A stretch of 64,000 nucleotides of DNA, taken from assembly GCA_036172245.1 (NCBI GenBank), contig JAYWIR010000017.1, forward strand, positions 1,612,001 through 1,676,000, given 5' to 3'. The notes under the pieces were generated by a model. It was not told the DNA's origin. It was given only the letters and a program-made list of their open reading frames with translations, and did not search any database. The translations under genes and the position numbers were made by a program. This DNA comes from Raillietiella orientalis (Eukaryota). Below, one piece after another: positions 6,611-60,758 of this stretch. Numbering within the stretch: position 1 is the stretch's first letter; each line of letters opens with the position of its first letter.

Positions 6611-9133
6611 CGATGGCAGCGAATGAAAATCTCTCTTCGCTCACGGCACAGGCGGTGCCCAGACATCCGTCAAGCAAAAGGAGAGAAAGGGTTGTCGATC
6701 TGACGAAGAAGAGGAATTCGGTTTTGCTGCTGGACTTCTGTGTCCGCCTTTTGTCAGCACGTTCATCCGGAGAAAGACGCACTGGCCGTTCAACCAGAAA
6801 ACCGGATGAGGAGCTTTACAAGCTTTGTCACCCGGTTGCTTCGAGGCGTTCATCAAATGAAATGACGTCATTGGTAGGACCCCGCCTCCTACCACGTCCC
6901 AGTGCATTTGGAGCACGCCGAGATGCTAGTACGCAGACCAACAAGGTCTGCCTCGGCAACAGAGGAGAACACACAAACAAACAAATAACATGTGTATATA
7001 TTGAAAACGAAACCTGGGGTGGAGGGTCCACTGGTTGTTGATAGGATCATTGGTTGTTGCGAGACAGCCGCCAGAAGATGCTAGCAAGTTCTATCACATA
7101 TTTCTCAGATAAGGCCATCCCGTTGCGATCCGCAAGAAGTGGGCCACGATGTTGATGGACTCCCCGTCGTCCTGGCCTCCTACGGCAGCGCTCCAGGATG
7201 CAACAATGCCTACAAGGCAGCAAACAACTGACAACGACGCGCTTGGAAACAGTGCATCTCGCACGAAGAGGCACTTTGAAGCGTCTTCCGGAGCTGTCTC
7301 TGGGGATCCGAAGGGTCGTGGCAGAAAGCTCCCAGACGGACCGGAGGACAACGCAGTCCACAGGCAGGCCAGGGAAGAATTCGACTTGCTCGCATCCCGC
7401 AATCTGTACAAGAATCCGGCTTGCTTGCATCCCGCAAGCTTATTTGGCGCAACTGGTTTTCTCTATCACGAAGTGTCAGCTTTGCAGTCAGGGCATATCA
7501 GCCCAAAGAGTGTTGCGGAGGCCAGGACTCCACGCTGAAGTCCTCCGCCCTCTTTTCCATGTGAAGCTCTTTGCATTTTAAGAAGATTTCTTTATGTCTA
7601 CCGCGGCACTTTTTTTGATCACTTCTCGGAATCATTGTCCGGCGAAGTGGTTCAATGATAACTTCCGCCAACACACCACAGGGTCATCAAACTCGGGAAA
7701 TGAAATCACATGGAACAAACAGGCGTCAATGGCATGAGATCTAGGAGATGCTAGGAGTCCCTCTTCATCCCTGCTTCATCCTCGAAGCAAAAAGACTTTC
7801 TGAAACTGGATGGAATTTTCTTATTTGAGGAGGTACTGCTGGAACGAACAACGCTTGACCATATGCAAGCAAACACCGGATAGTCCACCGGATCTGCGAT
7901 CTTCTGTCCGTTTCAACATCTGTCCCGAAAAACCCCCGTTTCTTCCACTCAAATAGGACTCAAGAGCTCAACTGCCTTCCTGACGAGTGGGAAAATCTTC
8001 TTCTCCTGCGACGCAACGGACTTCGAGAGCACAGTCGAGAATGGCCGCAAATTATTCGGGGCGGCGTTTTCGATCATGTGATTAGGAACATGCTTGCGTT
8101 CAGCATACACTTGACTTCTTCGTTCTGCCGTTGCGGTTCCTTCTTTTCCGGAGACAACCGAGAGCACCGATGACGTGATTTTTGCCATGTCAATCTCAAG
8201 TCTCACCCCCTCCCCCTCTGTCGTCTCATGCTTTTAGCAGAAGTGAAACCTCAGAAACTGTGTTCGTTTTATTTCATTTATTTGTCTGAATCGGCATAAT
8301 ATTTATTGAAGATGAGAACGTAATATTTTTTTTAAGAAATATTACCTATTTTCGTCATCTTTCAATTTTTTTTTTTTTTTTTTTTTTACATGTGGTACAA
8401 CACGGACAAGTGGAATGAAGTCCAGCTTGGAGGAGCAGGCAGTGGAAAGCTAGGAACGAAGTCTACTAAAGATGGACAATCAAAAAGCAAAGGGCGAACA
8501 GAAAGCAGACCTTCGTTCTTCTCACGTGTTTTCTGATCCGGAGAGGGGCACGAGGGATTTCCTTAAGAACAAATGCTTGCCTCTTATGAGAAACTCGATT
8601 TCCCGCTCAAGAATGCCATTCTGGACGCAAAGTGAGCTAGCATACAATGAATGTGAATGATGAAAGTGGATGATGTCCTAGGAAGCAGCTGATGAAGCTA
8701 ATGATTCTAAATCTCCTCAATCCTTTCCTCCAACTTTAAATCTTTCTACGTCATTTGGTACAATTCGTATTATTTAGCACCTCTGAAGTTCATCTCAGTA
8801 GTCATAGCGGAAAACACAAATTTTGCATCTCACGAAAGATGCCTTATGTGTGGAAGAGAAAACTGCTGATTCCCATGAAAACATAAGCGAAGAAAATGGA
8901 TACCGGGATGCCGCCAAGGTTCCCATTATTTAACGGTTCGTTCTGAGGATGGGATGCAGCTGAAGCGGTCTAAAACGACTGATTCTACTGGCTGTACTGC
9001 GATGCGAGAAGAAGCACAAAATGGTGAAGAGAAACCCATGCATTTGGAATGCAGAACATGAGAAAGTATGTCTCGATCGTTCTGCCTTCAAAGAGTATTC
9101 CATGACAAGACCTCTCTCCCCCTGTAGAACTTC

Positions 9134-34793: not shown

Positions 34794-37622
34794 GTGACTT
34801 CAACCCATGCCAGCCATCACCTTGCGGTCCCTTCACGCAATGCACGGTGCAAAACGAGAGGGCTGTTTGTCGTTGCCTAGACGGCTACTTCCCCAAACCC
34901 GACACCATCACTGGATGCGGTCCTCAGTGTCTTAGGTAATTAAACGAAAATTAGCAGCAAGACGAGACGCGCGCGCGCCTGTCTCTCGGTGGCAACTGAC
35001 ACGTGTCAGCTCCCTTCCCATTGCATCCGGGTGCTTGTCTTTTCCTCAGACTCTCGCTTCCCCTTCTCTCCTTTTCCTTCCCCTCTTTACTTCCCCTTTT
35101 ACGCTTTTTCATCCCACCCTCATCTCCACCCCACCCACCCTCCTTCCTTCGCAAACGTTTTCCTATCTCTAAGTTGCTGACTCTGAGGCGAGTCCCGTTA
35201 TTTGTGGTTTCGGGACTTGGCTGTCCTCAGAGGCGTTCCTCATGCTCTATCCAGAGATCACCTCCCTCCTTGTTTCTGGAGACAGCTTGCTCTGGGAAGA
35301 CTGCAGGCAGTTCCTCTAGCGGCATTTCCGAAGCCACACAAAGACGGGAGAGATCATCCGCCTCTACAGTAGCACCGACGGATGCGCGGCACAACCTGGA
35401 GAGGAACGGCGCACTGCTCTCTTCCCCCCCATCCCTCCTCCCTCTGAGGCACGAGGTTCTTCCCGTTGACCGATCCTCTTTTTTCATTTTCCTGAGAAAC
35501 GACCCCGAATCTTTGAGGGGACATCCGCAGAGCGGGCCTCCGCGTCTCTTGGGGATTCGTGTTACCTTGTTTCCTTTTTTTTTTTTTTGTCTTCTTCCTC
35601 CTCCCTCCATGGAAAGTCTCCTTCGTGACCGGCGTCGTTGTGCTCTTCCAGCAACCAGGAATGCCCCGTAGACTACGCATGCGTCAGCACGCGGTGCGTC
35701 AACCCTTGCGACAGTAGGACCTGCGGGAAGAACGCGTACTGCTCCGTCCGCAACCATCGCGACACGTGCAGCTGCTTCACTGGTCACGTCGGCAACCCGG
35801 ACATCGAGTGCCACATCAACATCCTGAGTATTCGTCCTTCCTTTTCCCCAAACGTGTTTCGGGGACTCTGGTTCCCGGAACAAACTTGTCTTTCGCAGAT
35901 CCCAGGTCTCCTCCTGTCTTAGCCAACATCCTGTCTCCGCATAGCACGAACGACCCCTGCAGTCCGACCCCCTGCGGCGCTAACGCCGATTGCAGAGCGG
36001 AGGGAAACAGGGCCATCTGCTCCTGCCCTGTGGGCTACACCGGAAACGCACTCACGGTCTGCCGCCGTGGGCAGTGCGTAGGTAGGACCCAAAGAATAGT
36101 CAAGCGAAGAGGAGAGAGAGAGGACGGTTGGGGACAAGCCGCTGCGTGTTTCTAACAGGCGCAGCAGCAGCGGGGGCATTTGCTTCCTTCTCCCGGAAGC
36201 TCATATTCTGAGTCACCTGGAGATCTGAACGCTACCTTTCCGGAGAGAAACCACTTCACCCTGAAAGTGGAGGAGTCTTGACTCTCGCGCTCCTCCTGCT
36301 TCAGCTTGTTTCCGGTCCTGTTCTCCGCCTCGCGTGCTGTTCTCAGGACCTTTCCTGAGGGGGGAGACACGGCGCCGCCCCCGAAGCCGAAGGGATGTCC
36401 CTAACTGCTGGTCTTTCCTCCGCTGCAGATCACGCGGACTGCGAGGAGTCCAAGCTGTGCGACGCGGACCTGCGGTGCGTCGACGCCTGCGCAGGGAAGT
36501 GCGGAGTCGCCGCCAACTGCAAGGCGGTGCGCCACATCCCCGTGTGCAGCTGTCCGGACGGCTACACCGGCGACGCCTTCAAGCACTGCACTCCCCTGAC
36601 CGACGGTTAGTTCCTCGGGGAAATGGCGCGAGGAGGAAGAAGGTCGGAGGAGCGTCCATCCGATCATTTTCCTCTTCCCTTCCCTCTCCTTTTTTTTTTT
36701 TTTTTTTTCAGATGACATCTGCACCCCGTTTACCTGCGCGGCCAACGCCAACTGCGTCGTGAGAAACCGTGTCCCCGTCTGCTCCTGTAAACCAGGATAC
36801 ATCGGGGATCCAATCTCGCGTTCGGCCGGCGGATGTCGCCACGAGTGCGAGAAAAACGAAGACTGCGCCGTCGAATTGGCATGCAAGGACTACCGCTGCG
36901 TCAGCCCCTGCGCGGGCGCCTGTGGGGAAGGCGCCTCTTGTGACATTGTCCACCACAGGGCAGAGTGCAAGTGTCCCAACGGTTACCTGGGCAATCCCCT
37001 CCTTCGCTGCTACCCCGAATGCGTCCGCCACTCCGACTGCCCCAGCTGGAAGACCTGCGTGCGCTTCCGGTGTCAGGATCCATGCGCCCCCGAAGTCGGA
37101 TCTTGCGGGGAAGGGGCCAACTGCACCACGAGGGACCATAAGGTCACTTGCAGCTGCCCTAGAGGATGGACGGGCAGCCCTTTCGTCTCCTGCCGGCCGT
37201 TCGAACTCCGTGAGTAGAGCAAGAGCCTTCTTCCCGAGGAAGCCGGTGCCCTGTGAACTTTAGGAGACCTGTGTGAGCCCAACCCCTGCGGAACGGGAGC
37301 AGAGTGCAGCCCGGGAAAGGACCGATCTGGGAATGACAGACCGGTGTGCCTTTGTCCGGAAGGCTTCTATGGAGACCCCATTAAGTTGTGCCAGAGGGGA
37401 GAATGCTTGACCCATGATCAGTGCCCCAGCGGCTTGGCCTGCTTCGGCTATCAGTGCCGGGACCCCTGCCTCGGGGCTTGCGGCATCCGAGCCCGGTGCG
37501 AGTTCAAGAATCCAGGCACCCTCTGCAGCTGCCCGTCCGGCTACACGGGAGATCCGTTCGTCGAGTGCGTCTACGAGCCCGCCTCCCACCGGTTGAGTGC
37601 TGGAGCCAGGAGCTCTTTCTGA
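34794..37622 (+). CDS. EGF/DPY-repeat (Dumpy-like) cysteine-rich extracellular protein, 5'-incomplete; resembles the short arthropod CG9572-type proteins often annotated as Notch-like
   Basis: Exons 34794-34935, 35652-35827, 35899-36081, 36429-36605, 36712-37209 and 37264-37622 are joined by GT-AG introns with compatible phases (510 codons plus TGA). The product has 9 EGF-like and 5 DPY-like modules (e.g. NPCQPSPCGPFTQC, ECEKNEDCAVELACKDYRC, DLCEPNPCGTGAECSPGKDRSGNDRPVCLC). No ZP or transmembrane segment before the stop. The donor at 35828 is weak. Confidence 0.92.
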
Positions 37623-38297
37623 TCCCTGAAAGCATTCCCGGGAGTGGAGCAGCGGATTGCTTCCCTTCCCTTCCTCTCCGGCATGGAGGCGAAGAGGAGG
37701 GAGGATGACGAAAAGGAATTGTCCTTCGGAGGGCACGAGGCTCCTCTGGCAAATACACGGGAATACAGCAGCGACGCCCACCTGTGACAGATACTTCCGT
37801 TTCCCATGCTCGCGCGCGATAGGGGACGGAAAAACGGGATCGGGCTGAGGAGATCTCTTCAGGCTTGCTGCAAACCGAGAATAGAAAAAAATCTGCAAAG
37901 CTCCTCCAGGTGACTGCGAGACCACTGCCAGCAGGGAATGCTGAGGACGAGAGAGTGGACATGTTTCCTCCCCGGGAAGAGTGGCATAGCAAACTTCCAG
38001 CAGGAGTGCGGAAGCAGCTATTCTTTCCCCTCACGCACACGAGACACCCCTCCCAAATCGCACCCTCTTCCAGATAGTCTTCGAAGCATCATGGACCAGT
38101 CATCAGGCCATAACTCGACGATTTTCAAGCTCCCTCGGGCTTTGAAGGCCTTTCTGGTTCTTGCGACATTGGCGGAGGGTCCTTGGAAGGGAAGGGAAGG
38201 GAAACAAAAGCTCCATTTCCAGGTTCGTTTTCCCAGCCGGCAAGTCGTGACGCTTGCGCACTTGTCCGATCTTCGGCACTCTTGTGATGCTGTAGTG

Positions 38298-38837
38298 TCC
38301 TGACGCGCCATGTTTCCTCCTGCGATGCTGACCGATGTTCCGGCTGAAATGGAAGCAGGACGTGCCTCCAGGTGCAACCGACGTAAGGAATCTGGCTTCC
38401 CGGGGAGAGAGGGACGTCCCCGAACTAGGTTAAGGTGCGGTTACGATTGAATCGTTGCCGCACCTGCTGGAGAACTGCAATGCCCTCCGGAAACTGTGGC
38501 GGAGGCTGCGTCTTCAGCGCTCTCTCACTTCCGGAGGGCGTCGCCAAGGACTTGATGCGAAGACTCTTCGCGCGCAGCAGACTTTCGTACTTTTCGACAC
38601 GCTGCATCCGCGCCACCGTCACAGCCCGGGGCACCTCAAAGGGAGGTCATTCCCCTGGAAACTGAGTACTTGAGTCGGGCCGCAAGGTGGCCTTACCTGC
38701 TGGAGGAAGTCGAGCTGGAGATTTCCGGTTCTGGGCGCCGGCACTGGTGCCCCAATCTCCCTTCCTTCGTTTATTGACCCACTTCAAATTACTCAGTGGA
38801 CAACCCGCGTCTCGGTGATCCTTCTTCAGAAATTCTT
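38298..38837 (+). repeat. Left arm of a 540-bp inverted repeat; LINE ORF2 3' end (zf-RVT-like)
   Basis: Reverse complement of 42598-43137, with 5 mismatches by manual comparison and no indels. Encodes MFRLKWKQDV...IESLPHLLENCNALRKLW. Confidence 0.95.
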
Positions 38838-39017
38838 CCTGTTTTTTCCCCGGATTTACCCTATCTCCGCATCTCGCCTCCGCGGGAGGACGGCGCCCCG
38901 TTCGGGGAAGGACAGACTCCGCGAGCGGGGTTGCGTCGTGGGTTTCGATTTCCCTTCCCCCTCTATCCCCTCGCAGGATGACTCTAGTTGACCCATGGGC
39001 TTTGGGTGCAGCACTGG

Positions 39018-41393
39018 TTGACACCTGGTCACGCCGGGACGTTTATTTATAAAAAAAAATAAACGTCTGTGGCAGGATGTTTGATCTTGCCACGTTACTT
39101 ACAACTACGAGAAGGAACCTGGCGCGAACAAGCACGCAGGCCAGCGGGATTCGCTCCAGCAGCACAGAAGAAGGGGAGACAAACAAAAAGAAAAAAAATA
39201 AAGCAAAAAACATGCAGTAAAAAAAATAGGGGGGTTAGGGAAGGGATCACTGTGTGCTGGAGGGTGCTCTCTGCATCCTTATAAGGATGCCGGCAAGTAC
39301 CTGTTTCATGACTCTCACATGGGGACATCCTGACTCTGTCCTTATGAAAAAGACAACAGAATACATGGCATCCCTGTCATTCTGCACTATGGCTTGCTGC
39401 TCCATGCAGCCACGTTTCTGCGTAGGCGGCAAAGTGCTTCTAGAGATGCGGCCGGCGTGAGGGCATCGCTTAGGAAGAAAACCTTCAAACGACTCTGGCG
39501 TTGCCTCAGGGAATTCCAAGGGTCGCGGCAAAGCGTTCCCAAAGGGGCCGGAGGTTCACTATGAGTTCACTAGGAGGGATTCCCGCTCTCTGTACCTTGC
39601 GCAGTTCGGGTCCACACGCCACCGTGTCCAATGATGCCGGCGGGCGTTGCACGGGAGGTCCCAGTGCAGCAGCATCAACGCTGACTGCTTCCACTTTAAG
39701 GGGAGAGTACCAGTGTTCATGAGCACCGGGGTCCACTGCAGGTCTTCCTCCAGAATACTCAGTAGCACGCCCAAGAGCAAAAGTCCACGAGGTCGAGCAC
39801 TCATGGTCGCAGCATCAGTGGGCTGGCCCGTCGTCCACTTGCCCAGCCCTCTTCTCTTTCTGAAGATTTCCACAGTAACCTCCCATCTGGCCGTAAGGAT
39901 GCTGCCCATGTGCTCCCTAAGGGAGAGCAGCGCAGCGGCGAGGGAGGTTTTACTTGTCCACGCACTCTTCACAGGACCTTCCAGGATATCGCGGAGTGTG
40001 CGGTTGTGGTTGCGCGTACAGGAAACGTCGCACCTGTTCCGCGCTTGGCTCCTGGATCCCCGCCCACGTGAGAACAGTTTCCTGTAATCAAGCACTACGG
40101 TCCCCGGAGCGACACTGGTGAAATCCGGAAACCTCCGGATGCTCTCGTTGACTGGCCAGGATTAAGAATTGAACCTCCGGGGTCCTTCCAGGAGTCAAGA
40201 AGAGGAGGTTTTCTTCAGAGTTTCCCTCCGGTCGTGAAAATGGAATGTCCAGAAGAGAGCTGCTCCTTTCAGGGAGAGCCCTTTAGAGAATCGGGAAAAG
40301 TCTCTTTGGGGTCCTTTCCAGAGAAGCAAACCAACAGAGAATCCTTTCTGGGTTCCCCTCCGGAGAAGTAATAATGGAGCGGTCCCTTCTTGGAGGTCCT
40401 TCTGGGAAGAAAAAGGAAGAAGGGGGTTTCTCCAGGACTCCTTCCCAAGCGTGAGAGGAGCGGAATCCTTTCCCTGGATCCTTCCTGGATTTATGGGACG
40501 GTTTCCCCCTGGGGGACCCCCTATCTTGAAGAGTTTACACGCCACAGCCTCGGGTGGTGTGAATGGTATCAAAGGGCTTAGTGAGTCCCCAGGTGAATGG
40601 TTCTCGAGCACCTGGCGGGACGCTGATGAGGGAAGCAGAGGTCTTGGAACATTACAGGGATAAGATGGCGCCCTTGCATCTCCCCCTTTCCCTGGCCTCG
40701 GATCAGGATTCATCGGGACCTTCCACCGGATCTGCGAAAGAAACCGGAGCTGGGGTCGCGGAGGGAACGAAATCTTTCGAGATCCTGGCAGAAAAATGAA
40801 GACGCTTTCCTTTGCGAAGTCATATTGGCACTTTTCCGCGTTACTGGATGTGGTCCAGAACCCAGCGCCGACGAGACCTTTCTTTGTTTCGGAAGCTCAC
40901 CGGGAAGTCCTGGTCACTTCCACAGAAAAGCTTGCTCCTCTCCTCCCTGATCCTATAGTTTTCATCCGACTTCCAGTGAAAGTGGAATTTCGGAGAATCA
41001 GGATGTGAGGAGCTGCGTGGGATGAGCCGGTATGGAAGGAAGAATAAACGAATGGGGGGTGAGGGGTTGAGTGATGGATGGCTCGTTTTAGATTAAAGAT
41101 GCAGGAAAGGAAGATACTGCTGCTGTCTGGAGAAGAAGGCATTTCATTGTACAAATAACCAATCAGTGACCTAGCTCCGGTGAGAAATCGACCTGATTCC
41201 CATATGTTCCACCATCTCTTCTCCACCCTTCCTATTCTCGGGAATGGGTCATGGAAGGAGGGTGTCGAGAGAGAGATATGTTTGAAGGTCATATTCGATC
41301 AAGGTGGCTAGTAAAATCGATAGTTCTTAGGATGAAGGAGATTCCATCCTAAGAATCATCCAATCTTCACCATTATGTGAAGGGAGAAAGTGG
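39018..41393 (-). mobile_element. Internally deleted (bipartite) L1/Tx1-like LINE: ORF1-like region, APE start, ORF2 C-terminus, 3' UTR
   Basis: ORF1-like GRVEKRWWNIWESGRFLTGARSL (about 41.2 kb). APE N-terminal SWPVN (40147-40161) and LQET (40076-40087) are followed almost at once by the C-terminal PLKWKQSALMLLHWDLPCNARRHHWTRWRVDPNCAR..RESL, a pyrimidine-rich 3' UTR and the terminal motif at 39018-39047. Confidence 0.7.
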
Positions 41394-42519
41394 TGAAATC
41401 TGGATTCGACGGTACATTTACTATAAAAATAATAAAAATACAATTAAGTCTTTCTGTGGTAAACCACTTGGTTCACCGCGTCCTGGCAACTTGTCAGTCA
41501 CCGGTCTGTTGGCCGGAGAGGTCCATTTCGCGGTGAAGGGGGAGAGAAGACAGCAAAATGAAAAAATGGGGAGGGAGATTTTTCTTGGAAGGAGGGGGAG
41601 GAGAAAGGGGGGGGGATCACTTTTTGCCTGTAGACGTCCTCTGCATCCTGTCCAGGTTTCCAGCAAGTTGCGTTCTCATACTGCCCAGGTGAGGCCATCT
41701 GGATGCGGTCCTCAAAAAAATCCGTGCCCAGCGGATGGTGTCCCTGCCACTCTGCCCTCTTCTTGTCGCGTTCCAGGCCACCGCGATTCCGCAGACGCAG
41801 CAGAGAACTGCTAGGGACGAGGCTGATGGAAGATCAGAACGAAAGAGGCTCTTAAAAATGTCCTTGGGGCCGCCTTCAGGAATATCTAGGATCGTCGACA
41901 GACGATTCCAGAGAGGTTGGAGGGAGCACAGTCCAGCAGAAGGTGCGGTCTAAGTCTCTTTGTCGCCGCACCTTTCACAACGAGCGTCAATACTCCCCGT
42001 GTCCAATCATGGAGGAGCACTTAGCGTGGGATTCCCCAAGGCAACGCTAGCAACGCCACTTCCTGCCACTTCGGGGGGAGGGTGCTACCGTCCCAACTCG
42101 CTGGGGGCCACTTCACTTCCTCAGGAGGTATCGCGAGCAGCTCGCCCCTAAAATGAGGGTAAAGAGTTTACCCTGCTCTTGGTTCTTTTGAGGACGGAGT
42201 ACTGAGGAGTATTGTGGAAAGCACATTATCCGGGATCTGTTGGGGGGTACCTCTTTTTTTCAGGATGAATCTTTTCTAGAAGAATCTCGAATGCGTGGAG
42301 ACAGGAGCAAACATGTTCCAAGTCACGAAGGAAAGGGAACGAAAGGAAAGAAGCGGAGACGGCTGACCGGTTCAGAAGTCGAAGCCAGCATTCAAGTCAG
42401 GGATGACTGCACTGGGGCGGGAGTTCCTCCGAACAACGCCAGGCAGCATTTCCTAGGTACCGATCGGATGCGGCAGAGATGCTTCAACGGTCTGGCCGAA
42501 GAAGCCTCAGGATCATTGG
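41394..42519 (-). mobile_element. 5'-truncated copy of the same LINE family (ORF2 C-terminus and 3' UTR)
   Basis: Minus-strand PKWQEVALLALPWGIP..LLHDWTRG / IDARCERCGDKET..HLLLDC / PLWNRLSTIL. Terminal motif at 41394-41422. Confidence 0.75.
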
Positions 42520-43137
42520 TTCTTCACATGGACACGCCGCGGCTTCTCTTAGAAAATAAACAAACAAGTTGGGAACGCAGTTTCCAAAAGAATCAGCAAG
42601 AATTTCTGAAGAAGGATCACCGAGACGCGGGTTGTCCACTGAGTAATTTGGAGTGAGTCAATAAACGAAGGAAGGGAGATTGGGGCACCAGTGCCGGTGC
42701 CCAGAACCGGAAATCTCCAGCTCGACTTCCTCCAGCAGGTAAGGCCACCTTGCGGCCCGACTCAATTACTCAGTTTCCAGGGGAATGACCTCCCTTTGAG
42801 GTGCCCGGGGCTGTGACGGTGGCGCGGATGCAGCGTGTCGAAAAGTACGAAAGTCTGCTGCGCGCGAAGAGTCTTCGCATCAAGTCCTTGGCGACGCCCT
42901 CCGGAAGTGAGAGAGCGCTGAAGACGCAGCCTCCGCCACAGTTTCCGGAGGGCATTGCAGTTCTCCAGCAGGTGCGGCAACGATTCAATCGTAACCGCAC
43001 CTTAACCTAGTTCGGGGACGTCCCTCTCTCCCCGGGAAGCCAGATTCCTTACGTCGGTTGCACCTGGAGGCACGTCCTGCTTCCATTTCAGCCGGAACAT
43101 CGGTCAGCATCGCAGGAGGAAACATGGCGCGTCAGGA
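42520..43137 (-). mobile_element. 5'-truncated LINE 3' end; contains the right arm (42598-43137) of the 540-bp inverted repeat
   Basis: Same zf-RVT-like peptide as the left arm. Continues to a weaker version of the terminal motif at about 42520-42549. Confidence 0.85.
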
Positions 43138-45979
43138 GACTGAGGATTTTCCCACCAGCGTCTTCTCTACTGAATGCATCCTCTACGAGTGAGATGCACA
43201 GACGCTATAATTAATTAATTCAAATTTCTTAATTCGGACGAGGATTTCCTTCGGAGAGTTCTGGATGGAAAGTGCAGGAAGGAAAGGAAATGGGAACAAA
43301 GGGAGCCTCAACGAATCGCTGTCTGCGCCCTCCGCAAAAGCACCGTGTTCTTGTAAACACTGTGTTCCTGCACTCATCCACCACTAGTTGCGAGGGAAAA
43401 AAAAGAAGCATTTGAGACCATATTCCATTCAGAGTCACGCATAGCCTATGGGAAGGTGAACCAATCCTTCGGAACTGCAGACTACGTCTCCTTAAAATGT
43501 TTCGCTCGTTTACCCCAGTTTGTTTTCTTTCTCTTCTGCTCTCAGTCTGTCTTAGTGGATGAGATGTTTCTTCTTTAATTCCAGAACAATCGCCCTGCCT
43601 TCTTCTATCTTCCAGGGTGTTTTCTTCCAGTCATACAGGGAACATGCAAGGTGTTCCGCTTGGGATTTCCACTCACGGGAACGCATCAGAATCCATGGCT
43701 TCTGGCACGCTTAAGAGGCATAGTCATCAGCGTCGTTCTTGACGCTGGTTGTCCACATTTGACGTGTTCCATCGGAAACCTCAACAGCGCATGGAACAAG
43801 CAGCTCGAAGAAAGCGTGCCCGGATGCGGTGGAGGTTCCGTTTGCGAAAACGGAGGTACACCATCTGAGCACACGTGCCTCCGAAGCAGGCTCAGAGACG
43901 GAGTTAGCAGACAGCACCAAGAAGTGCCGCTGAGATCCACGGTCCTTCCGGATCTCGGTCTCGGAGAAGGAAGTTTTAGTGTGGAACTCAGTTGGGAGAT
44001 GAGAACCCCTCCCCCCCCGAAGCACCAGCCGCTTTCTGTAGCCAGGCGCTGGGATCGGCGGGGCATCCGGCCGTTGTCCCTCTCTACGACGACCTTGCAT
44101 CCTAGGAGGGGTCCGCAAGTTCCGGCCGGAGCACGAAAGGTAAAGGATACAAGTCCTTCGTTTGGTCCCGGCCGCACGCCTGTCGAGGGGCGTGAAGGAC
44201 CGCGCACCAGGGCCTGCCCCTCGACGCAACCTCTGGTGTCCTCCACCGCATCTGAGTCTTCATCCTCATCTGCTCCGGTGCCAGGAGGCTGAGACTTGCC
44301 ATTACGATGAGGAATACGCGTGTCCTACAGCTGGACTCGGGACTTGGAGTGAGGAAGACGCTGGCGAACCACGAGAGAGAGGAGGAGGAGGACACGTCGC
44401 GCATCTTCCTCTTGTAGGGCGACAGAATCGCGCTTTCCTCTCCCCGTAGCCATGGGGGGGTGGGGGAGGTTGCAACAATCTACCCTGGAACTGTCACGGA
44501 CCTCATGCGGATGCTGTTTTTAGAGGACGCCCGGGGCAGCAGGCGCGAGCACCTGCGACTGCGAGCGACGGCCGCGACCGACGAGAGCACAGGGGCGGCA
44601 GGGAAGAAGAACATGTGTGCTCTGATCAAGGAGCGCGCGGGAGAAGACGCGGGAAGAATGCTGCTGCTGCAGTGTATCCTCGACCGAATGCTTCAGAAGC
44701 CTTAAAAGAGATCGTCTTTCGTCTTGCCTTCGAGATGACGAATCTTGTGATAGGCACGACACTTGCCATTGCGGTGCTGACCATCAGCACTTGGACTTGC
44801 TTCTTTTAGGAATTCAAGCGAATGCAGCATCTCCTGGTGTTCGTGTTTGCTTTGTGTTGAACTCTGGCGACCATAAAACAAATCGAATTGCAATCTCCTG
44901 TCCAAAATTACCACCAGAAAGATAAAGCTAAAATATGTATGAATCGACAGATTACAAATTTACTCCGTTCCTCTCCTGTGCGTGCCGTCGTTAATAAATG
45001 TCTACATGGCATCCGTACGTTGGATGCGTTAATAAATCACCCCCTACTCCTTGAGGTGTTTTCATAAAAGTAATTGATGTTCATCTTTGAAAATACTGAT
45101 CTTTTCCGATCCGGAAAAACAGATAAAAGTTCTGGGGAGTCGTCTAGAAAAATCTTATTGTCCCAGCTTATTTTAGCACCTGGTCTCAGTATCACGCGCT
45201 AAAATAAGCACAAACAAAGAACATAGACGCAGATTTCTGCATTTCCTACTTTCACATGGAAATTTCCTGTAAGTAGGCGCAGATACGCTTTTTGGAAGTT
45301 TAGACAGAAGAAGCGTCTCTCCCTCGTGGTCGTTTATTAGGGCTGAGATCCACTCGAGGTTAATTTTTCTCGACTCCAGCGCATCCTCATCTGCCAAAAA
45401 TAGATCGCTCTTGAATGTTTTGAATCCACTGAAGGTCTTTTCTTTCTTCACATTCCTAACAAATTGCAAAAGTAATGGATCGTGGGTCTCAGAAACCATC
45501 GTCGTAGGAATCTTGGAACCAGCTTTCCAAGAAATCACTGATTTTCGCGATCCGCATATTTCACTTTTGGCAACTGCAGAGATTTCCGGTACGTTCCTGT
45601 TGTTGTCTCTGCTCTATTCCTGGGATCTTGTAATCTAGCTGCGATGCTACTATATCATGGATGAGTAGCTACTTTCGTCTTCCTTGAAATGACCATAGTT
45701 CAGTTTCTTGAAGGAAAATTAAGATGAATCGCCCAATTATGTATGAGAAGTTTCCTTTCCTCAAAGACGAAATTCAATTTCCCACAGCTGCACCTGTCTT
45801 TTTCCCATCGGAATTCTTTCAGGTTCTCTTCCTTGTCGTCTTTTGCTTGAGATTTTTCGTCTTTGTTCTTCGTGCCACGCAAAAACCGAACAGCATCCTT
45901 CCCTTCCTAGTGAAAGTTTCTTTGTTACCACCACTCAGACACCGAGTGCGGCGTTGGGTGCAGAACGCACACGAGATTA

Positions 45980-48720
45980 CGTAAAAAAAGCCGTAGGAAA
46001 ATCATTCATCTTGATGGATAGATGACCGCACCGGAAAAAATTTTCAAAGAGACTTGACAACAATCCTTCAGAGCAGTGATGAGACAACAGACAGTCGACT
46101 CTCACACGGGTGTTTTCCTCCCAAGGGTTACGAAGGAATTCCTGGGATTCCTTACGTACAATCAGTGACAGTAATGATTTTTTTCCCTTTCTCTTGAAGT
46201 GCAGTTGGTCACCATTTTCCCCTGGGCCGCACGAAGACTTCAAGCTCGAATGGCTTCCCCGGAAGCTCAGAGTCAACCGTGCATCACGATAAATGGCTAA
46301 GGCTCTGTCCAGAGCCCCCAGACAGTCTGCCTCTCTATTGCAAGGTGCACACGTTGCTAGCAATGTTCTGTTTCCCATGGCTTCGTCTTGAGCATGTAAG
46401 GAAGTGAAGGGACAGCAACCAACAGGCTCGATCTGACCTTTGGCCGGACTCCTTTCAAGGACGTTCATGAGCTTCACGCACACGTTCAAGTCCCGTCCGA
46501 AGGACCATCCTAACACTTTTCTTTTGCCCTGCCTCCCAACAGGAAACGGAACCCACCGACTTGCAGGATTCCTTGATGACATGCTGCTCACCTAGCGACG
46601 AGTCGCAAACAAGGCGCAGATTGGCAGTCAGGCCTCGCGTTTCTTATGGTGACGCGCAGGCTTCCGAAAGAGGTCTCCTCCGTCGGCTCTTTAACAGTCG
46701 TCAAACAGTGTTGCCCTTCTCTTCCTGCAGCAGCGGGTGCATCGCTTGGCCTCCCGATCCCGCAGAGGCGCAGAGCTGGCTTCACGAGCCACGGGAGGTG
46801 ATGGCGGCGCAGGTTCACGCAGCGCTACTTTTTCTGGGAGAGGTCGCATTCACGGCGACTGCAGCAGGTCAGGACCCAAGAAGGATCTCGGGAAAGAAAG
46901 GCGAAAATCATGGAATGGGGGAAAGAGCGGATGTCCACGACGCATGAGCCGTAGGAGTTCGGAGATGTCTACTGGAATCCGAGAGGGAAAAAAGTCTTCT
47001 TCCCCCCTCAGATGAGAGCAGCATTCTTCTGAGGGTATCATCGGGATTGCACCCAGGATCGAGTCCACGATTTCGAGGGCGAGGCATTTGGGGGAAGGGA
47101 ATGAGAAGATCGCAAAGTACTTAAAATCAAGGGTCTTCTCGAGAGCGTTCCGTTACCATGGAAAAGGGAATGCAGACGTTGACCGTCCCTCGGAATCAGG
47201 CTGCGTACTGTTGTGCTTCCGGCTCACGTCCGCCGAAGACGACCCAAGAGGGCGGGCGTTCGCCTGACCCTTGTTCCTCCCCCCGTTAAAACCGAGACCC
47301 GATTTATCTTCCCTTTTCTGTATCCCCTTGAGGGAGGTCGAATAAGACGCCTCTTCGGCGATCATTCCTGCCCACTCATCCTCACCACTCGCAGAGAACG
47401 GGTGCTGCCTCAGACGTCCCAGGTCTCTTCTGCCGCCCTCCTTTCTCTCACTTTCTCGAAGGGAGTGGTAAGCGGAGGGGGGAGGAATCGCAGGTGTGCC
47501 TCTCTCCGGTGGCATCACCAAAGCGTCGGTGGCAGCGCGCGCGCACCAGACCCTTCCTTCCAGAGATCGATCTCGGAGGGCTCTTCCATTCGTCTTTTCC
47601 CGGAAAAAAAAAGCCTTCCCGGCTACACGTGCGACTTCTTTCCAGAAAGGTTTCGCTTATGCGATAGGGTGAGGTGACCTCTCTTATCAGGAGGAGGAGG
47701 AGGAGGAGAAGCTACATGTAGCTGGCGATAGAAAGTGACACAGAGCGCTCCCGCAGTGATACCTAACCACTTTCGTCTGTAGGGGGTGGATGGTCGGATG
47801 GGATGATGCCAGCTACTGCGACGGAGCTGATCTCCCAGTGGTGGAGGATTCTCACCCCTGGTCACCCTCGATTCCCATGTCCTAGAACAACCTTCTCGAT
47901 CAAGCCTCTCTTTTCATTCCTTGCCCTTTTTCCCCTCCTTCCTTCAAATAACAAGTTCTCTCCAGAGGGAGCCGTCAGCACCAAATTCTCGGATACAGGG
48001 GTGGAAATAGGGAACGACCCTTGGATTCTCCGTGCTGCTCCCAAAGGCCTTTCAGGCAGTTCATCCACCTACCAGACCTTCTCTGTGACACCTGATATCG
48101 CTGGAGCATTCTTAGAAAGCTGTCCCTGTTGTAGAGGAAAGGGGATAGAGGTGGTAAGGTAGCAGAGTCGAAGACCGAGATCCAACGGAAGTTTGCAAGT
48201 AGGGAACAGAGCTCTTGCCAGTGGGACCTAAAGCGTCAGAGGGGAGGACTTCTTGCAGGCCACACTTCTATCCCAGCACCCAAGACCGTTATTCAAGTTC
48301 CCGGCCCTCTCGTGGAGGGGGAGACCTCGGAGACGCGGCCAGAGAAGCCCTGGCTTCGGACGGGGGAAACACCATTCACACGTGACTGTTCTGAGAACTC
48401 TCCGTAGGAATGCGGAGGAGGGGTGGAGCATTCAGATGAACTACAGGAACACGGACGCCTTGGCTTTGGGCGCTAGCGTCCTACCGACCGAAACCGCGTT
48501 GTTCCATGACAACCCGGAAGGGCACACGTCGGTCTTCGGTCAGCCGACTCCACACTGAAAAGGAAACACGAGGCGCCTTGGAGGCCTCATCCGTGTGAAG
48601 CTTGGCCCGAACTTCTTACCCGTCGGTCGTATGGAGTGTTCCTGCCGCGAGCTCCGCACACAAGTTGCTTCGCAGCTCCCACGTCGGTCACGGGAAGCCA
48701 ATGTGTGCTGCATTGTTTCT
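45980..48720 (-). mobile_element. Degenerate L1/Tx1-type ORF2 (APE and RT) remnant
   Basis: Ordered minus-strand fragments: RQEH (QETH), CGVG, VGRTL, VHLNAP, AGNLNNGLGCWDR (GDFN), VTFYRQL, NARPLG, LDFKYF, MRRGHPLFP (RQG.PLSP), KVLGWSF. Confidence 0.55.
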
Positions 48721-49489
48721 CCTGCTCTTCGATCGTCCAGAACTCCAGAGAAAGCACCTCCCTGAGGAGGATCCTTAAAGGGCACGGTAAAAGGTGGTCT
48801 ATTTGCTACTCTCTTGCCTGTCCGTGATTTTCCATATGAGTCGGGGCTTCTGCTTGTGGAAAAAGCGATGCTGGCGATGTTCATCTATGGGTACAGCGTT
48901 CAATGAGAACATTTGCCTTCGAAGGAGGAGACGTAAAATGGGAACGTACTGGAATTTTGCACCGACCCAGAATGCAGCAGATTTCGCATTCTCAATTGAC
49001 TTCGAAAACCCTGCTGCCTCTCAGATCATTTGATAAGGTCCTATCTACGAGACAGCTCTCTCTATCGGGTATTCGTGAAACTACGCCCCGAAATCATGGA
49101 TGCAGTTCAGCGTAGACTAGATAGTAGTAAGCAGTGGTCAATAAGTAACTAATAGATAGTAGAGAGCTTGAGAAAAAATTTATCTGGCAGAGGATTAAAT
49201 AGATAAGTCAATACATATACGTCTCGTAGAGCAAGAAGAAAGTTCCTTCCGATATTGCAGGAAGTATGAAGACTTCCTCTGCTCCCAATGAATCCTTTTT
49301 CTTTTCTAGCTGCATTTGCGTAAAAGAAGAAGAATGCTTGAGGTTTGTCGCTGCATGTACATGGTCAGCCGATGCAGGTGACCTTCAGAAAAGTCCAAAA
49401 GGAGTCTCCAGTGGGAGAACGGCCATTGCACAGCATAACGACCGAAAGTGTCATCTTCAGCAGCATCATGAGGAGCATCTTCGGCATGG

Positions 49490-49962
49490 CCGGGGCCAGG
49501 GTAAAATCAGAGGAAACGCACATGTCGGCGCTGCTGGACGGAAGACGAAACGCTGCCTCATATCTTAAACCGATGCAGGAGGCACTTTCATCTGTTCACT
49601 GCACGACATAACGTGATCAAAGAAATGATTAGGATGGCCGTGGTGGATGAGGCAAAATGGACCCTAGTGTCGACTAACTAGAGAGCTCCAGAAACGGAAA
49701 CCCTCTTGTGTCCCTATCTAGTGCTGAAGAAAGAAAATCAAACAATAGTGTTTGGCATTTGCTGCCCATTCGAGGCTGGAAAAGGAGTTCAGCACAGCCA
49801 GGAGGAACAAGCTGGAAAAGTATAAAGAGGGAGCCCTCAGTTAAGCAAAGGAAGCAATGTAAAGTGCATGCTCTCGTCGTTGGCTCACTAGGAGCCTGGG
49901 ATCCAGATAACGAGGAAGTGCTTCATGATCTTGGAATTCTTAAAAAGCACTCGGAGAGGATG
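49490..49962 (+). mobile_element. NeSL/Utopia-type non-LTR retrotransposon fragment (CCHC and restriction-like endonuclease)
   Basis: CRRCWTEDETLPHILNRC...ARHN...CPYLVL...ICCPFE, then after a frameshift ARRNKLEKY...VHALVVGSLGAWDPDNEEVLHDLGI. One stop codon plus frameshifts; truncated by the adjacent element. Confidence 0.85.
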
Positions 49963-51100
49963 CTTGAATCCGGTTGCGCCGGGAGTTTTATTTTGAAATA
50001 AGAACAGAATGAACTACAAAGAAGAAGGAAAGAAGGGTATCCTCTCAGAAACACGAAACGCCAAAAAAAAGAAAATTTCACCCGGGATAACCACCAGCGC
50101 GCAAGCCGGCTTCCAAAAACTAGGGAACGGAGGGAGGGGACAATGAATAAATAAAAAAAGATAGGAGGGTGGGGACAGGGGTCTTCGATATTCCTTAATT
50201 TTCAGAAGCGACTGTGGATGGTAACGATCTCCCTGGAGACTCCTGACAGATGAGGGCTCCTTGTTGCTGCCCTTATGAGGGCCGCTGCCATGCTGGTGGC
50301 CTCTCTTCGCCGCGAACTTGATTCCAGCACATGACTGTCACTATGGCGCGGATGCAATCGATTGTTGCGATCCCAGAGCCTTTCTTCAGTCCACTTTTTG
50401 TAAAAAATCGCCGCAGCGAGTCCGCTGCGGTGTCCTGAGGTCTACGGAGTGCCGAAGAGAGTTCCCGCCACAAGTCCGCGAGGGCAATGCAATCCAACAG
50501 CAAGTGCGGGAGTGATTCCATCGCCATGCACCTGGAACAGCTCTGGGAGACAACTCCCCCGTAAAGCAGGTGTCTGCGCTGATTACACTGGAATTCCCAA
50601 TGCAGAAACAGCAGAACATCCTGTTTCCACAGGAGCGGGAACATAGAGGTGTCCACTACGGTACTTTCAGTACCTCGGTGTACCGTTGGGAGACTATTAT
50701 CCGGCCGAGTCGTGGTCCAGCTGCCTCCAGAAGGCAAAGTTGGCGATCAGCGCGTTCCGGGATGGCAAGTTTCTCTTTCCAGAACGGGCCGCGGTGTGAA
50801 ACGCGTTTGTGGCCCCCCTCTTCGGCCCCCTGCTTTTTGTTTGTCCCCCACCGAGTAGCATTAAAAGACGGACGAAGGACCTCCTGAAAATCTCCCTGTG
50901 GGCACAGGGAGGCCCCGAGTCAGCCTGAAGGACTTGTGCGCACCAAAAACTTTAAGCTCTGCGTATTGCTTCACGACGGTCATAGTTTCCTATCACTTAT
51001 TCATAAGGATTGAAAAGACGATTGGCACGAAGAACATTTTAGATCCCATGAACATCCCGAGTGCTTCGGTCACGTGTTCCCTTTAGCTAAAGATTAGACG
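49963..51100 (-). mobile_element. 5'-truncated LINE 3' end, same family as the 38-43 kb chain
   Basis: ORF 50273-50737 reads MFPLLWKQDVLLFLHWEFQCNQRRH...CSRCMAMESLPHLLLDC. Pyrimidine-rich 3' UTR and terminal motif at 49964-49992. The 5' boundary is approximate. Confidence 0.8.
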
Positions 51101-52956: not shown

Positions 52957-53752
52957 TCATTCTGTGGCTTCAGAGATATAAATAATTTTGGTAAAAACAT
53001 CTAGCCCTTTTGCTGAGGAGAAAGGCTTCAATTGCATTTCATTTGCATCTGCTATTGTTAAAGGATTTGTTTCCTCCCAGCTGTTAGATTTGAAACCTCT
53101 TTCAGGGCTCTGCCATAAGATATCAAAAGAACCTTAAGATAACAAATGAAAGCAAAAAGCGAGAACAAAAAAAGTTACATACAATTTTCCTCTATGACAG
53201 GCAAAATTGATACAGCAGCTATAATTTGCTTGATCACACATTGGAACATATTTGGGTCTTCTTCTTGCTTTTCTCCAATAGTTTTACTATCGATAGTGTT
53301 AATGGCCAACTTAATTTGCTAACTACCTCTTCTTGCTTTCAGTTATCTCAAATTCCCATTGTTCACGTACATCTAATCTCACCAGACTCTGAATAATCAA
53401 CATTACTTTCACAACATCTTTCAGATGATCTACAAAAGTTTACAGAATTATACTAACTTATTATCTTACCATTAATATGTTGGAGAACATCTTTGAGATA
53501 AGACTGGATATCATGTCTACTTATTAACATGATATGCATACCATGTTTTTTGGTACGAATAAATTGTTCAGGTTCATATACACCCCTATGAAACAGAATT
53601 GAATTGATGGCACATTCTGAAAAACAATTTACAAAATAAATACTGAATACAGATACAAAATCAAGAATCATACAGCATTTCAAGTGAAATACCAAACCAA
53701 ACACTTTGATGAAGATAAAACTCTCAGCACCAACTTCAATATTTACATTCAT
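52957..53752 (-). CDS. Mad2-like HORMA-domain protein (divergent), 194 aa
   Basis: Exons 53752-53698, 53616-53470, 53429-53327, 53286-53183 and 53132-52957 (585 nt; GT-AG introns of 81, 40, 40 and 50 nt). Motifs ECAINSILFHRGVY, REQWEFEI, CVIKQIIAAVSILP, CSFDIL, WEE and LKPF align with Mad2 INSILYQRGIY, LERWQFDI, VIRQITATVTFLP, CSFDLL, WEE and LRSF. Confidence 0.88.
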
Positions 53753-55161
53753 TGAATGACCCGAAAAATTGTGATCTTTTTGGATTAGAGATAAAATCGT
53801 GAAAAGAAATCATGTTTATTTTTTAATCTGCCGGAAAGCTGATTTTGCAATAAAACTATTTAGATAAAAAGGAACTGATTAAAAAAACTGAGCAACCTGA
53901 AGTGCAAAATTTTATCTTATAAAACTTATCCACTAAAAATTTTTGCAAACTAAACTGTATATTTCCTTTATTAAAATGTAGTAAACTACACTGCAACAGT
54001 TTACCTTCACACACTACAGAAGACTCACCTAAGAATTCTACTTCCATACATAATGTTGGATTTGCATGTGTATTGGCCATTCATTTGGCTAAAACAAAAA
54101 ATTTGTTGGAAATCAAAAACGCAATTTCAGTAAATCAGGTAACATAGTAAATATCGTACAAATTTTAATTTGGCAAAAGTAGACTGCCAAAGTTAATGAC
54201 TGCTCAAAATATTTGATAAGAATATTTTAAGTTTTTCACACCGACTTTGTGTTTGCCTAATTACCATATATCAGTGGGGATGAATGCTTTAATTCCCTAT
54301 TACTTCAATAACACCTCGTTTTACATTTTAAAGTTATTACTGATACCACAATTTCATTTGCTATAAGAGTGCATCTGACAATTCGCTTGAGGTATTAGCT
54401 TACTCAAACAAACTGTTAGCGGTTAATTTCGGCGTTACGTTTATTCCAAGAATTTCGCGCATTCAATAAAAGAACACGAAACATATATTCAAACACATGA
54501 TCATAACAATTAATGTAACATTCAACAAGAACCCAGAGAATGAATTACAAAAATCCATAATTATACACTATTTAAAAGGCACTTTGATATTTCCCGAGGC
54601 TCAACCCCTAAGGCTCAATCATTTCAACAGCCGGCACCTAGGGATGCCAGCTGTTAAAATGATTTTTTCCTATTTCATATCTATGATTACCATAAAGATT
54701 TGTTTATTAAAAACCACTTTTCTATTGCGTTAAATTAATAATTTTCATAAAATATTTCTTAAGCTAACAAAAAGGGTGCATTTAGAGATTGGAAATGAAC
54801 GTTCGATGAAATAAGTATGCAACAATGCATCCATTATGCCATTCGTCTTTGATTAGATTCATCTATACTTATTAATAGGAACAATTATCAATCGGACCAG
54901 CTTCCGGACTCGGTGCCTTTAGAACCCCTTATTAGTTTAAAGTTCCGTCTTACTGTGGGTTTCGCTTTGAACCCTTACCAAAAGGGATGTTCCAAGCACT
55001 GTTCGTTTTCTCTTTTCCCCAGTCCGACAAGCGGTGCGGTGAATTTATTAAACACACAACAAACAAACAATTACTGTCACTTTGGCGATTTATTAATCAT
55101 CAGTCGTGCCAACGCGGGTAAATCACTGCGTCGTCCTGGCAGTGCACTGCAGTATCTCCAG

Positions 55162-57535: not shown

Positions 57536-57577
57536 TCGACGATAGGAACTGCTCGATTAACGGACGGCTGGGTTCCT

Positions 57578-60006: not shown

Positions 60007-60758
60007 TCAGGATGCAATAATCCTCTCAATTTGATCACATAAAGAGAATGAATAACTGTTACTTTCATGACATACGTGTTTGATGTTTAGTAAGTTTTCA
60101 ACTAATGAAGCATTATCTTGCTGCAATTGAAGCTGATGTTGGGAGATCCAACTTCTATCATGATTCAGATAATAACTTTCAACAAATTTGTGAGGGCAGC
60201 AAATTCCCCATTCCTAAATAATCACAGTTAATGCAATTAATCAAAAAAATTGATCACCTGTGGACTCAACATAGACCAATACTTTTCTCCAGATGGACGT
60301 TCATATAAATGATAAACATGACCTGGTATCTTCACAAAATTGCAAGCTACATGATGTAGTTCGTATTGAATTCTGGTATCTTCCATTATTCTTCGAGCTT
60401 GATCACACAAAAACTGGGCTTGTTCAGCTATAACAACTAGCTTGTTTGTTGCATTTGCCTTAATAAAATCATCCACCTAAATGCAAAAATGACATCATCA
60501 AGCAATTAAAAACAGACATCAGTCAAAGTTGGATTTTCCAAAAAAAATCTCAATACCTCTCATATTATTTTTCAAAATAAAATCCATGAATGAAATAATG
60601 TATTTAGAACACAAGTTCATTTTCTTTATAACAATGCTGGAAACAATATGGTGTCTCCATTTACTCACACTTTGAATGCTTTCTGCTAATTCTATTAGAT
60701 CAACCTTACTGCAGCTCTTCGACTGAGAATTTATCGGTTTTTGCAAACTCAATGGCAT
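60007..60758 (-). CDS. C1orf50: C1orf50-like / DUF2452 family protein
   Basis: Exons 60758-60669, 60476-60258 and 60213-60007 (GT-AG introns of 192 and 44 nt): [30 protein letters not shown]...LHHVACNFVKIPGHVYHLY...SMLSPQEWG..CPH.F...Y.L.HD.SW. The start may lie in an upstream exon, since an acceptor-like tttag lies just before the ATG. Confidence 0.9.

Follow-up and report, generated by a model that had tools for sequence, protein, structure and literature searches.

Conserved 3' ends have been described in long interspersed nuclear elements (LINEs) of the L1 clade. In a monocot L1 lineage (the LINE1-1_ZM group), the last 45 nt diverge by 0.144 as against 0.570 overall, which was read as stringent recognition (PMC3472496). 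For this lineage, the available part of the same report gives a hairpin with compensatory changes together with partner short interspersed nuclear elements (SINEs), and it gives a SINE partner for L1-1_CR of Chlamydomonas too. Its Table 1 has 13 of 15 green-algal L1 families without poly(A), five with no 3' repeat and eight with other repeats, and stringent recognition is proposed there to be ancestral for green-plant L1 (Ohshima, PMC3472496). Here, we report on a 64-kb stretch of the Raillietiella orientalis genome (contig JAYWIR010000017.1, positions 1,612,001 to 1,676,000; hereafter the window), in which five old copies of a LINE lineage, all read on the minus strand, end in a shared block of 48 nt without an A-tail. 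Both strands were scanned (128 kb), and all that follows is based on these five copies.

A preliminary description of this DNA had set such ends against L1/Tx1 elements, said to usually end in A-rich tails. In the light of the published L1 literature, as far as the accessible text of Ohshima 2012 (PMC3472496) goes, that contrast is too broad, since both stringent L1-clade LINEs and L1 families devoid of poly(A) are reported there. Nor is the rarity that it implied borne out: stringent L1-clade LINEs with a conserved end of ~45 nt are already in print (PMC3472496).

A conserved block at the tail-less 3' ends of five LINE remnants

The block is real and specific to these elements, forms an island of conservation and is not followed by a tail. 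The copies are named c39, c50, c41, c42 and c7, after the position of each in kb. Four motifs quoted in the preliminary description were verified letter for letter on the minus strand, at 39047->39018 (c39), 49992->49964 (c50), 41422->41394 (c41) and 42549->42520 (c42). A fifth copy, c7, was absent from that description and lies downstream of a further remnant of this protein tail (core 6846-6830, block 6865-6818, minus strand), so that the independent 3' ends number five, not four. The features of the copies are as follows; bits refer to a covariance model of the 48-nt block, and mismatches to a 17-nt consensus (TCCCGGCGYRACCRGRT) for which only c39 and c50 were used.

39011..39058 (minus): terminal block of c39; U-rich tract, AATAAA, core TCCCGGCGTGACCAGGT, then GTCAACCA; 48 bits, exact to the consensus.
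39059..40161 (minus): body of c39; decayed, frameshifted C-terminal coding remnant (WKQ...C..C motif) and 3' untranslated region (UTR); open frame 39562-40161 (minus), stop 39249-39247 in a GTGATCC context.
41386..41433 (minus): terminal block of c41; AGTAAA, core TACCGTCGAATCCAGAT; 44.2 bits, four mismatches to the consensus.
41434..42147 (minus): body of c41; coding remnant with open reading frame (ORF) 41620-41949, stop 41619-41617, and 3' UTR.
42514..42561 (minus): terminal block of c42, the weakest; decayed hexamer, core CCGCGGCGTGTCCATGT; 39.6 bits.
42562..43141 (minus): body of c42; its stretch 42588-43141 has an inverted duplicate at 38294-38847.
49956..50003 (minus): terminal block of c50; AATAAA, core TCCCGGCGCAACCGGAT, then TCAAGCA; 41.1 bits, exact to the consensus.
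50004..50925 (minus): body of c50; best-kept C-terminal ORF 50276-50746 (CX2CX7HX4C knuckle, with the WKQ motif before it) and 3' UTR; the 5' limit near 50925 is deduced from an interrupted plus-strand frame.
6818..6865 (minus): terminal block of c7; hexamer GATGAA, core CCTCGAAGCAACCGGGT, then GACAAAG; 39.5 bits, four mismatches to the consensus.
6866..7497 (minus): body of c7; coding remnant with ORFs 7050-7439 and 7097-7462, stop 7049-7047, and 3' UTR.

The 17-nt consensus has two exact sites on both strands of the window, and nine sites with four mismatches as compared with 6.7 expected from first-order Markov resamples of the window. Three of these nine are the ends of c41, c42 and c7. 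The chance of a four-mismatch site in a given 50-nt zone is ~0.003 per copy, yet this happened in all three remaining copies. With leave-one-out position matrices, each of the five left-out sites scored above every non-family position among 127,936. For c7 the score was 14.4, with the best non-family position at 6.9, and c41 ranked fifth of 127,936, behind the four training sites only. The margin was small for c42 (8.5 versus 7.6 for the best non-family position). With the covariance model, run without filters, the five sites scored 39.5-48 bits, and the best position outside them reached 13.8 bits (E 2.6). Since the model was trained on the five sites, only the lack of further matches in the window is informative.

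Conservation is confined to the terminus. The mean pairwise match is 0.587 over the last 45 nt (z 5.9 against shuffles), 0.211 over the 45 nt beyond the end (z -1.2) and 0.209 over the 45 nt that precede the block. Elsewhere in the UTR, the match is close to background, and the coding block 270-314 nt upstream reaches a z of 2.9 only. In pairwise local alignments, the UTRs outside the block beat shuffles only via T-rich low-complexity runs. Neutral decay would wear the terminus as much as the neighbouring, unalignable UTR, and decay alone would not have spared only the terminus.

The five ends were aligned by MAFFT, and conserved columns were counted on that alignment. The block comprises, in order, a U-rich tract, an AAUAAA-like hexamer, two bases, a GC-rich core and 4-10 bases ending in CAA, CA or GAA. 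The U-rich tract precedes the hexamer in four of the five copies. The hexamer itself is AATAAA in c39 and c50 and AGTAAA in c41, and has decayed in c42 and c7. The core has the consensus TCCCGGCG-YR-ACC-R-G-R-T and loses at most 4 of 17 positions in any copy; most invariant columns belong to it (C23, G24, G27, C31, C32 and T36), as against a single position in the hexamer. In all five copies, the end falls 22-26 nt after the hexamer and finishes with A, AA or AAA.

The tail-less 3' end is real for these five copies. As stated in the preliminary description, no A-tail is present: the longest A-run within ~20 nt of any of the five ends is 3, and the 30-nt flanks contain 20-27% A. The core is so well kept that a former A-tail of useful length should have left an A-rich trace, and the tail-less state is thus taken as genuine. 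A CCA directly follows the end at 39018, 41394 and 42520 (CAACCA, CACCA and GAACCA), that is, in three of the five copies. The element may extend a few bases further, to this CCA, or the triplet may reflect a nick-site preference.

The evidence also supports assigning the block to the LINE remnants, as the mark of a discrete 3' end. A five-way profile alone cannot assign it to the element or to the flank, because conservation in the UTR beside the block does not exceed that in the outer flank. On the other hand, the block has the same orientation in all five independent remnants of the protein tail, and its end lies 221-229 nt past the stop in three copies, c39, c41 and c7, which share a GTGATCC context there, and 138 nt past the stop as read in c42. 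The U-rich tract runs straight into it, and in c39, c7 and c41 a conserved box is found just upstream of this tract. Constant orientation, stop distance, continuity with the U-rich tract, the upstream box and the lack of any free-standing block in the window together attribute the block to the element.

The junction of c50 bears on the same point. Its block adjoins a plus-strand coding-like sequence, with a CCHC knuckle followed by RHN and a PD..D-like stretch (49470-49963). The plus-strand ORF 49678-49998 crosses the junction 49963/49964, and a possible continuation frame resumes at ~50925 (to ~51083). As this coding-like sequence abuts the block and seems to resume past the insert, the block is placed inside the inserted element. 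If the plus-strand continuation is real, c50 would be a nested insert of ~960 bp, with the block as its 3' limit. The preliminary description had the block abutting an unrelated Utopia-like element. The adjoining of a different coding-like sequence at 49963 is confirmed; the Utopia label is backed neither by Pfam, nor by a homologue, nor by the Atlas. A word-indexed search of longer proteins with ORF 49678-49998 gave no match. Presumably, the features of this plus-strand remnant fit LINEs with a restriction-like endonuclease (R2, NeSL, Utopia group), a label that no tool supports.

The remnants, ~0.6-1.1 kb long, carry stops and frameshifts; they are dispersed, diverged and front-truncated, and have the 3' portion of an ORF in common, together with a 3' UTR. 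In tblastn comparisons, the c50 peptide shows 42% identity to c39 over 50 aa (E 1.8e-9), 32.7% to c41 over 55 aa, 37.5% to c42 over 56 aa (a plus-strand copy at 38335-38484 scoring equally) and 35.7% to c7 over 42 aa (7394-7172, minus strand). By tblastx, c39 is collinear with c41 over 39229-39772, and c7 also matches c41 and c39. Nucleotide similarity outside the block is limited to coding pieces of ~60 nt at ~74% (blastn). With only 33-42% identity in protein and such short nucleotide matches, the copies are members of a lineage and not, as first proposed, of one LINE family. Three of them, c42, c41 and c39, lie head to tail on the same strand within ~4 kb; c50 has the same orientation, at a distance of a further 7 kb. 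Such clustering could be due to chance in a repeat-rich stretch, or to a preference for inserting near earlier copies.

A part of c42 is present a second time in the window:

38294..38847 (plus): partial inverted duplicate of c42, 98.4% identical over 554 nt to 42588-43141 (minus) by blastn.

This duplication is the sole long repeat of the window and brackets c39 and c41. The duplicate stops 27 nt before the start of the c42 block; the sequence beyond is unrelated and contains no model match downstream. Because it ends short of the block, it was not counted as an independent 3' end. The outer flanks of the two arms differ, and no duplicated flank was seen. As an alternative, the duplicate (c38) and c42 might have arisen by separate insertions of one short non-autonomous element having another 3' end. 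This idea was rejected, since the 5' limit of c42 is known solely from the duplication and a local inverted duplication is simpler. The stretch at 38294-38847 is thus probably a local inverted duplication or rearrangement at the DNA level.

RNA folding and affiliation of the lineage

According to the preliminary description, the two best copies can fold into a terminal hairpin (CCGG-CGCAA-CCGG and CCCGG-CGUGA-CCAGG). Neither thermodynamics nor covariation supports this hairpin in the five copies. In the five-way alignment, 72% of its cells are paired; shuffles give 63.6%, and 43 in 500 of them do at least as well as the real alignment. In three of the five pairs, departures from the commonest pair involve unpaired cells only. 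RNAalifold predicted no pair on the terminal alignment, and the fold energies of the last 43 nt correspond to z values of 0.66, -1.39, -0.76, 1.11 and -0.78 against shuffles. A hairpin between the U-rich tract and AAUAAA, with a perfect 9 bp in c39, is no stabler than at 93 control AATAAA sites of the window; the fractions of controls at least as stable are 0.10, 1.0, 0.33, 0.74 and 0.16.

Two other structures are only suggestive. Over the last ~118 nt, RNAalifold pairs an upstream GC box with the core in a long-range helix. In total, 30 of its 35 cells (85.7%) are paired, a value that none of 500 shuffles reaches, slid controls giving 29-54%; two pairs change on both sides. This helix was chosen from the same alignment and occurs in just two of the five minimum-energy folds. 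Only c39 and c41 fold better than shuffles over the last ~118 nt (z -3.96 and -2.32). The second structure is a candidate stem-loop, SL-A, found in the minimum-energy folds of three copies:

39069..39093 (minus): SL-A candidate in c39.
6871..6895 (minus): SL-A candidate in c7.
41456..41479 (minus): SL-A candidate in c41.

SL-A has conserved arms and variable loops, with 22 of 26 cells paired and two compensatory pairs, as compared with 27-58% in slid controls; a comparison of three sequences has no power here. Nothing clear is seen at the corresponding place in c42 and c50. Overall, the block is a conserved sequence block that could be recognised either by its sequence or by a fold.

As regards affiliation, the c50 peptide matches zf-RVT (PF13966, Pfam) with an E of 0.0064 and 17.6 bits, under the 27.5-bit cut-off. 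Seven other peptides of this lineage have no Pfam match even at E 5. A protein-language-model lead from the Atlas points to a cluster in which 40% of the members carry zf-RVT (score 0.96). The layout of the knuckle, W...W...C..C...H....C...LW, presumably resembles the ends of Tx1 and plant L1 ORF2. No endonuclease is kept in any copy. With HMMER, the c50 peptide gave one match among 1.84 billion representatives, a 3398-aa repeat protein (DUF7239; E 9.7e-5), which is spurious. Sequence searches of the PDB returned nothing meaningful, the best match, glycine receptor beta (E 0.9), being taken as chance. Judged from these sequence features, an L1/Tx1 assignment is favoured by a narrow balance. 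Of the proposal of an L1/Tx1-like lineage with a stringent, structured 3' signal, the stringent part is reasonable, given the conservation of the last ~45 nt; the clade is stated too firmly for a sub-threshold match and a language-model lead, and the fold did not find support.

The window holds a further LINE at ~54800-59800 (minus strand), much longer and much more complete than the five copies and likewise decayed, with gag-like CCHC knuckles and endonuclease-like motifs recognised by eye. RVT_1 is detected in it at E 6.5e-5, its knuckle comes straight after the reverse transcriptase (RT), and it has no terminal block. As a LINE of another kind devoid of the block, it serves as an internal negative control.

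Proposed recognition of the 3' end and competing explanations

We favour, with moderate confidence, a reading of the block as a cis-acting 3'-end signal for stringent recognition by the element's own protein, with synthesis starting from the end of the block. The terminus has been kept while the rest diverged past alignment, as in stringent LINEs, and it is this pattern that points to stringent recognition. The five copies are independent, front-truncated, decayed 3' remnants of a LINE lineage, the ORF2 of which would end in an L1/Tx1-type zinc knuckle. The protein of the element would recognise the block at the 3' end of the RNA and start target-primed reverse transcription. Synthesis of cDNA would begin at the end of the block or next to it, so that no A-tail would be copied. 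Both the binding of the block by the RT and the starting point of synthesis are what we infer from the pattern of conservation.

Several points weigh against this interpretation. There are just five old copies, and in these no stable or covarying structure is shown. The block holds a poly(A) signal, and transcript 3'-end formation would also explain its conservation. Pfam detected no RVT domain in 12 read-through frames over the 3.3 kb upstream of the copies; as the copies are front-truncated, this is no argument against a LINE origin. Word-indexed searches of longer proteins with the c50 peptide and the seven-row alignment A1 returned no relatives. The pattern AATAAANNTCCCGGCGNNACCNGNT was found at seven metagenome loci, at nine loci on prokaryote contigs (all bacterial metagenome-assembled genomes) and at no viral locus. 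By our estimate, this is about what chance would give for a 19-base pattern, and the seven metagenome loci score at most 12.7 bits with the full model. In the 64-kb window, the covariance model revealed no free-standing block and no SINE-like or non-autonomous partner with this tail. Finally, no convincing target-site duplication was found at the five copies, the one 8-nt candidate, at c42, having one mismatch, and the last base of the element is therefore uncertain by ~8 nt.

The main rival explanation, to which we assign a rather low probability, is that the block is a module for transcript 3'-end formation, made of a U-rich element, AAUAAA and, ~20-24 nt downstream, a CA at which cleavage would occur. 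It would be conserved for defined mRNA ends, the GC-rich core being a spacer or an auxiliary processing element and not an RT binding site, and the RT would start on the first 1-3 As of a short tail. Such a module fits the intact AATAAA of c39 and c50, the known variant AGTAAA of c41, the U-rich tract ahead of the hexamer in four of the five copies and the location of all five ends 22-26 nt past the hexamer, at A, AA or AAA. However, the best-conserved columns lie in the GC-rich core and not in the hexamer, which is decayed in c42 and c7, two copies where the core persists. Moreover, relaxed copying of polyadenylated RNA would leave A-tails, which these copies lack. It should also be said that 3'-end formation and recognition by the RT are not mutually exclusive. 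The model of the preliminary description, in which the RT recognises a terminal hairpin of 4-5 bp with a GNRA-like loop, appears quite unlikely. This hairpin is present in the minimum-energy fold of c50 and, as a variant, in that of c39; four of the five copies can form four of its five pairs, and in c42 both bases of one pair (columns 47-59) have changed, from C-G to G-U. Yet c41 forms only two of the five pairs, 72% of cells are paired versus 63.6% in shuffled alignments, RNAalifold gives no pairs, and the energies are no better than those of shuffles. In addition, the core can pair with the upstream box instead (85.7% of cells, 0 of 500 shuffles), and the two helices are mutually exclusive.

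Two further explanations are a poor fit to the data. It could be devoid of function, reflecting leftover common descent of a few copies or a selective reading of short GC-rich strings, which we find very doubtful. The set indeed comprises five copies only, the sites were already known when the consensus and the alignments were made, and the match of c42 is weak (8.5, for a background maximum of 7.6). Against this, neutral decay would erode the terminus like the neighbouring unalignable UTR; c7, which was outside the earlier list, surfaced among the nine four-mismatch sites of a consensus made from two other copies, where it would be expected downstream of a LINE remnant; and an event with a chance of ~0.003 per copy occurred three times out of three. 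Alternatively, the block could lie outside the element, as half of a preferred target site of the Tx1 type or as part of another repeat that was hit. Many members of the Tx1 clade are target-specific, according to the portions available of PMC4494074 and PMC3747384, the UTR beside the block is conserved no better than the outer flank, and CCA follows three of the five ends. Even so, such a location is extremely improbable: the block is always found on the side of the element, with a fixed spacing to the stop (221-229 nt in three copies), contiguous with the U-rich tract and the SL-A box of c39, c7 and c41. The 45 nt beyond the block share nothing (0.211, z -1.2), there is no free-standing block in the window, and the far side of c50 is coding-like sequence of a different element.

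Stringent recognition, our favoured reading, can be extended to a more detailed scheme, which we put forward as a speculative one of rather low probability. An animal, probably arthropod, branch of L1/Tx1 type would have retained or acquired strictly sequence-specific, tail-less initiation via a composite 3' domain, synthesis beginning exactly at the terminal CAA/CCA. This domain would consist of SL-A, followed by a domain of ~120 nt closed by the upstream GC box and the terminal CCCGGCG core, with AAUAAA embedded in it. If this were true, stringent recognition would be the original state for all of the L1 clade, and the poly(A) dependence of mammalian elements would be a late loss.

Local context and comparison with known LINE 3' ends

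Other features of the window are as follows.

~34800..37620 (plus): cysteine-rich EGF-like repeats in open frames, alike by tblastx.
40198..40896: GC-rich stretch between c39 and c41, with long frames on both strands (233 aa minus, 141 aa plus).
53456..53809 (minus): probable host exon, start of a HORMA domain (E 7.9e-5, just below the cut-off).
60240..60476 (minus): probable host exon, DUF2452 (E 8.1e-32).

The EGF-like repeats seem to resemble arthropod dumpy-type modules and thereby suggest an arthropod host. In the frames of 40198-40896, Pfam gave no match, and tandem repeats were not called there either. For the locus itself, the block changes little, since the copies are dead, front-truncated elements in repeat-rich sequence, beside decayed remnants of retroelements. 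If confirmed genome-wide, the block would mark the 3' limit precisely when this LINE lineage, and any SINEs with a borrowed copy of its tail, are annotated. It would also be an animal example for specific 3'-end recognition, and not recognition of poly(A), as an ancestral trait of L1-type elements.

Mammalian L1, which is of the relaxed kind, has in common with the present copies a poly(A) signal near the 3' end and front truncation. Unlike them, it carries A-tails and lacks a conserved terminal block; A-runs at the five ends described here do not exceed 3. The Tx1 clade (Xenopus Tx1) is an animal branch of L1 type and presumably has a similar knuckle. Many of its members are target-specific, as stated in the accessible parts of PMC4494074 and PMC3747384, whereas the five flanks described here are unrelated, and the copies keep no RT or endonuclease by which to place them.

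The L2-clade elements UnaL2, ZfL2-1 and ZfL2-2 resemble our lineage in having a conserved 3' tail that acts as a cis signal for the ORF2 protein, without poly(A) (PMC3747384, PMC4176376). As far as the same two reports go in their available sections, these elements differ by a proven stem-loop, a mapped binding region and ends made of short tandem repeats (TGTAA in UnaL2). The present lineage probably belongs to a different clade and displays neither a terminal repeat nor a proven stem.

Green-algal L1 families, in the part of PMC3472496 at hand, illustrate that L1-clade elements can lack A-tails; they are algal elements. Within the L1 clade, L1-1_CR differs in having poly(A) repeats at its end, in contrast with the lack of an A-tail here. 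The monocot group possesses a compensated hairpin, and SINE partners are given for both groups in that text; in the 64 kb studied here, no hairpin is proven and no SINE partner occurs, and L1 membership is putative. What the monocot L1 group and L1-1_CR share with the present copies, on the evidence of the same source, is the conservation of the last ~45 nt in elements whose remainder has diverged (here, a mean match of 0.587 as compared with ~0.21). With respect to these systems, the block of Raillietiella orientalis is a clean but ordinary further example of what is probably an already known kind of 3' signal.

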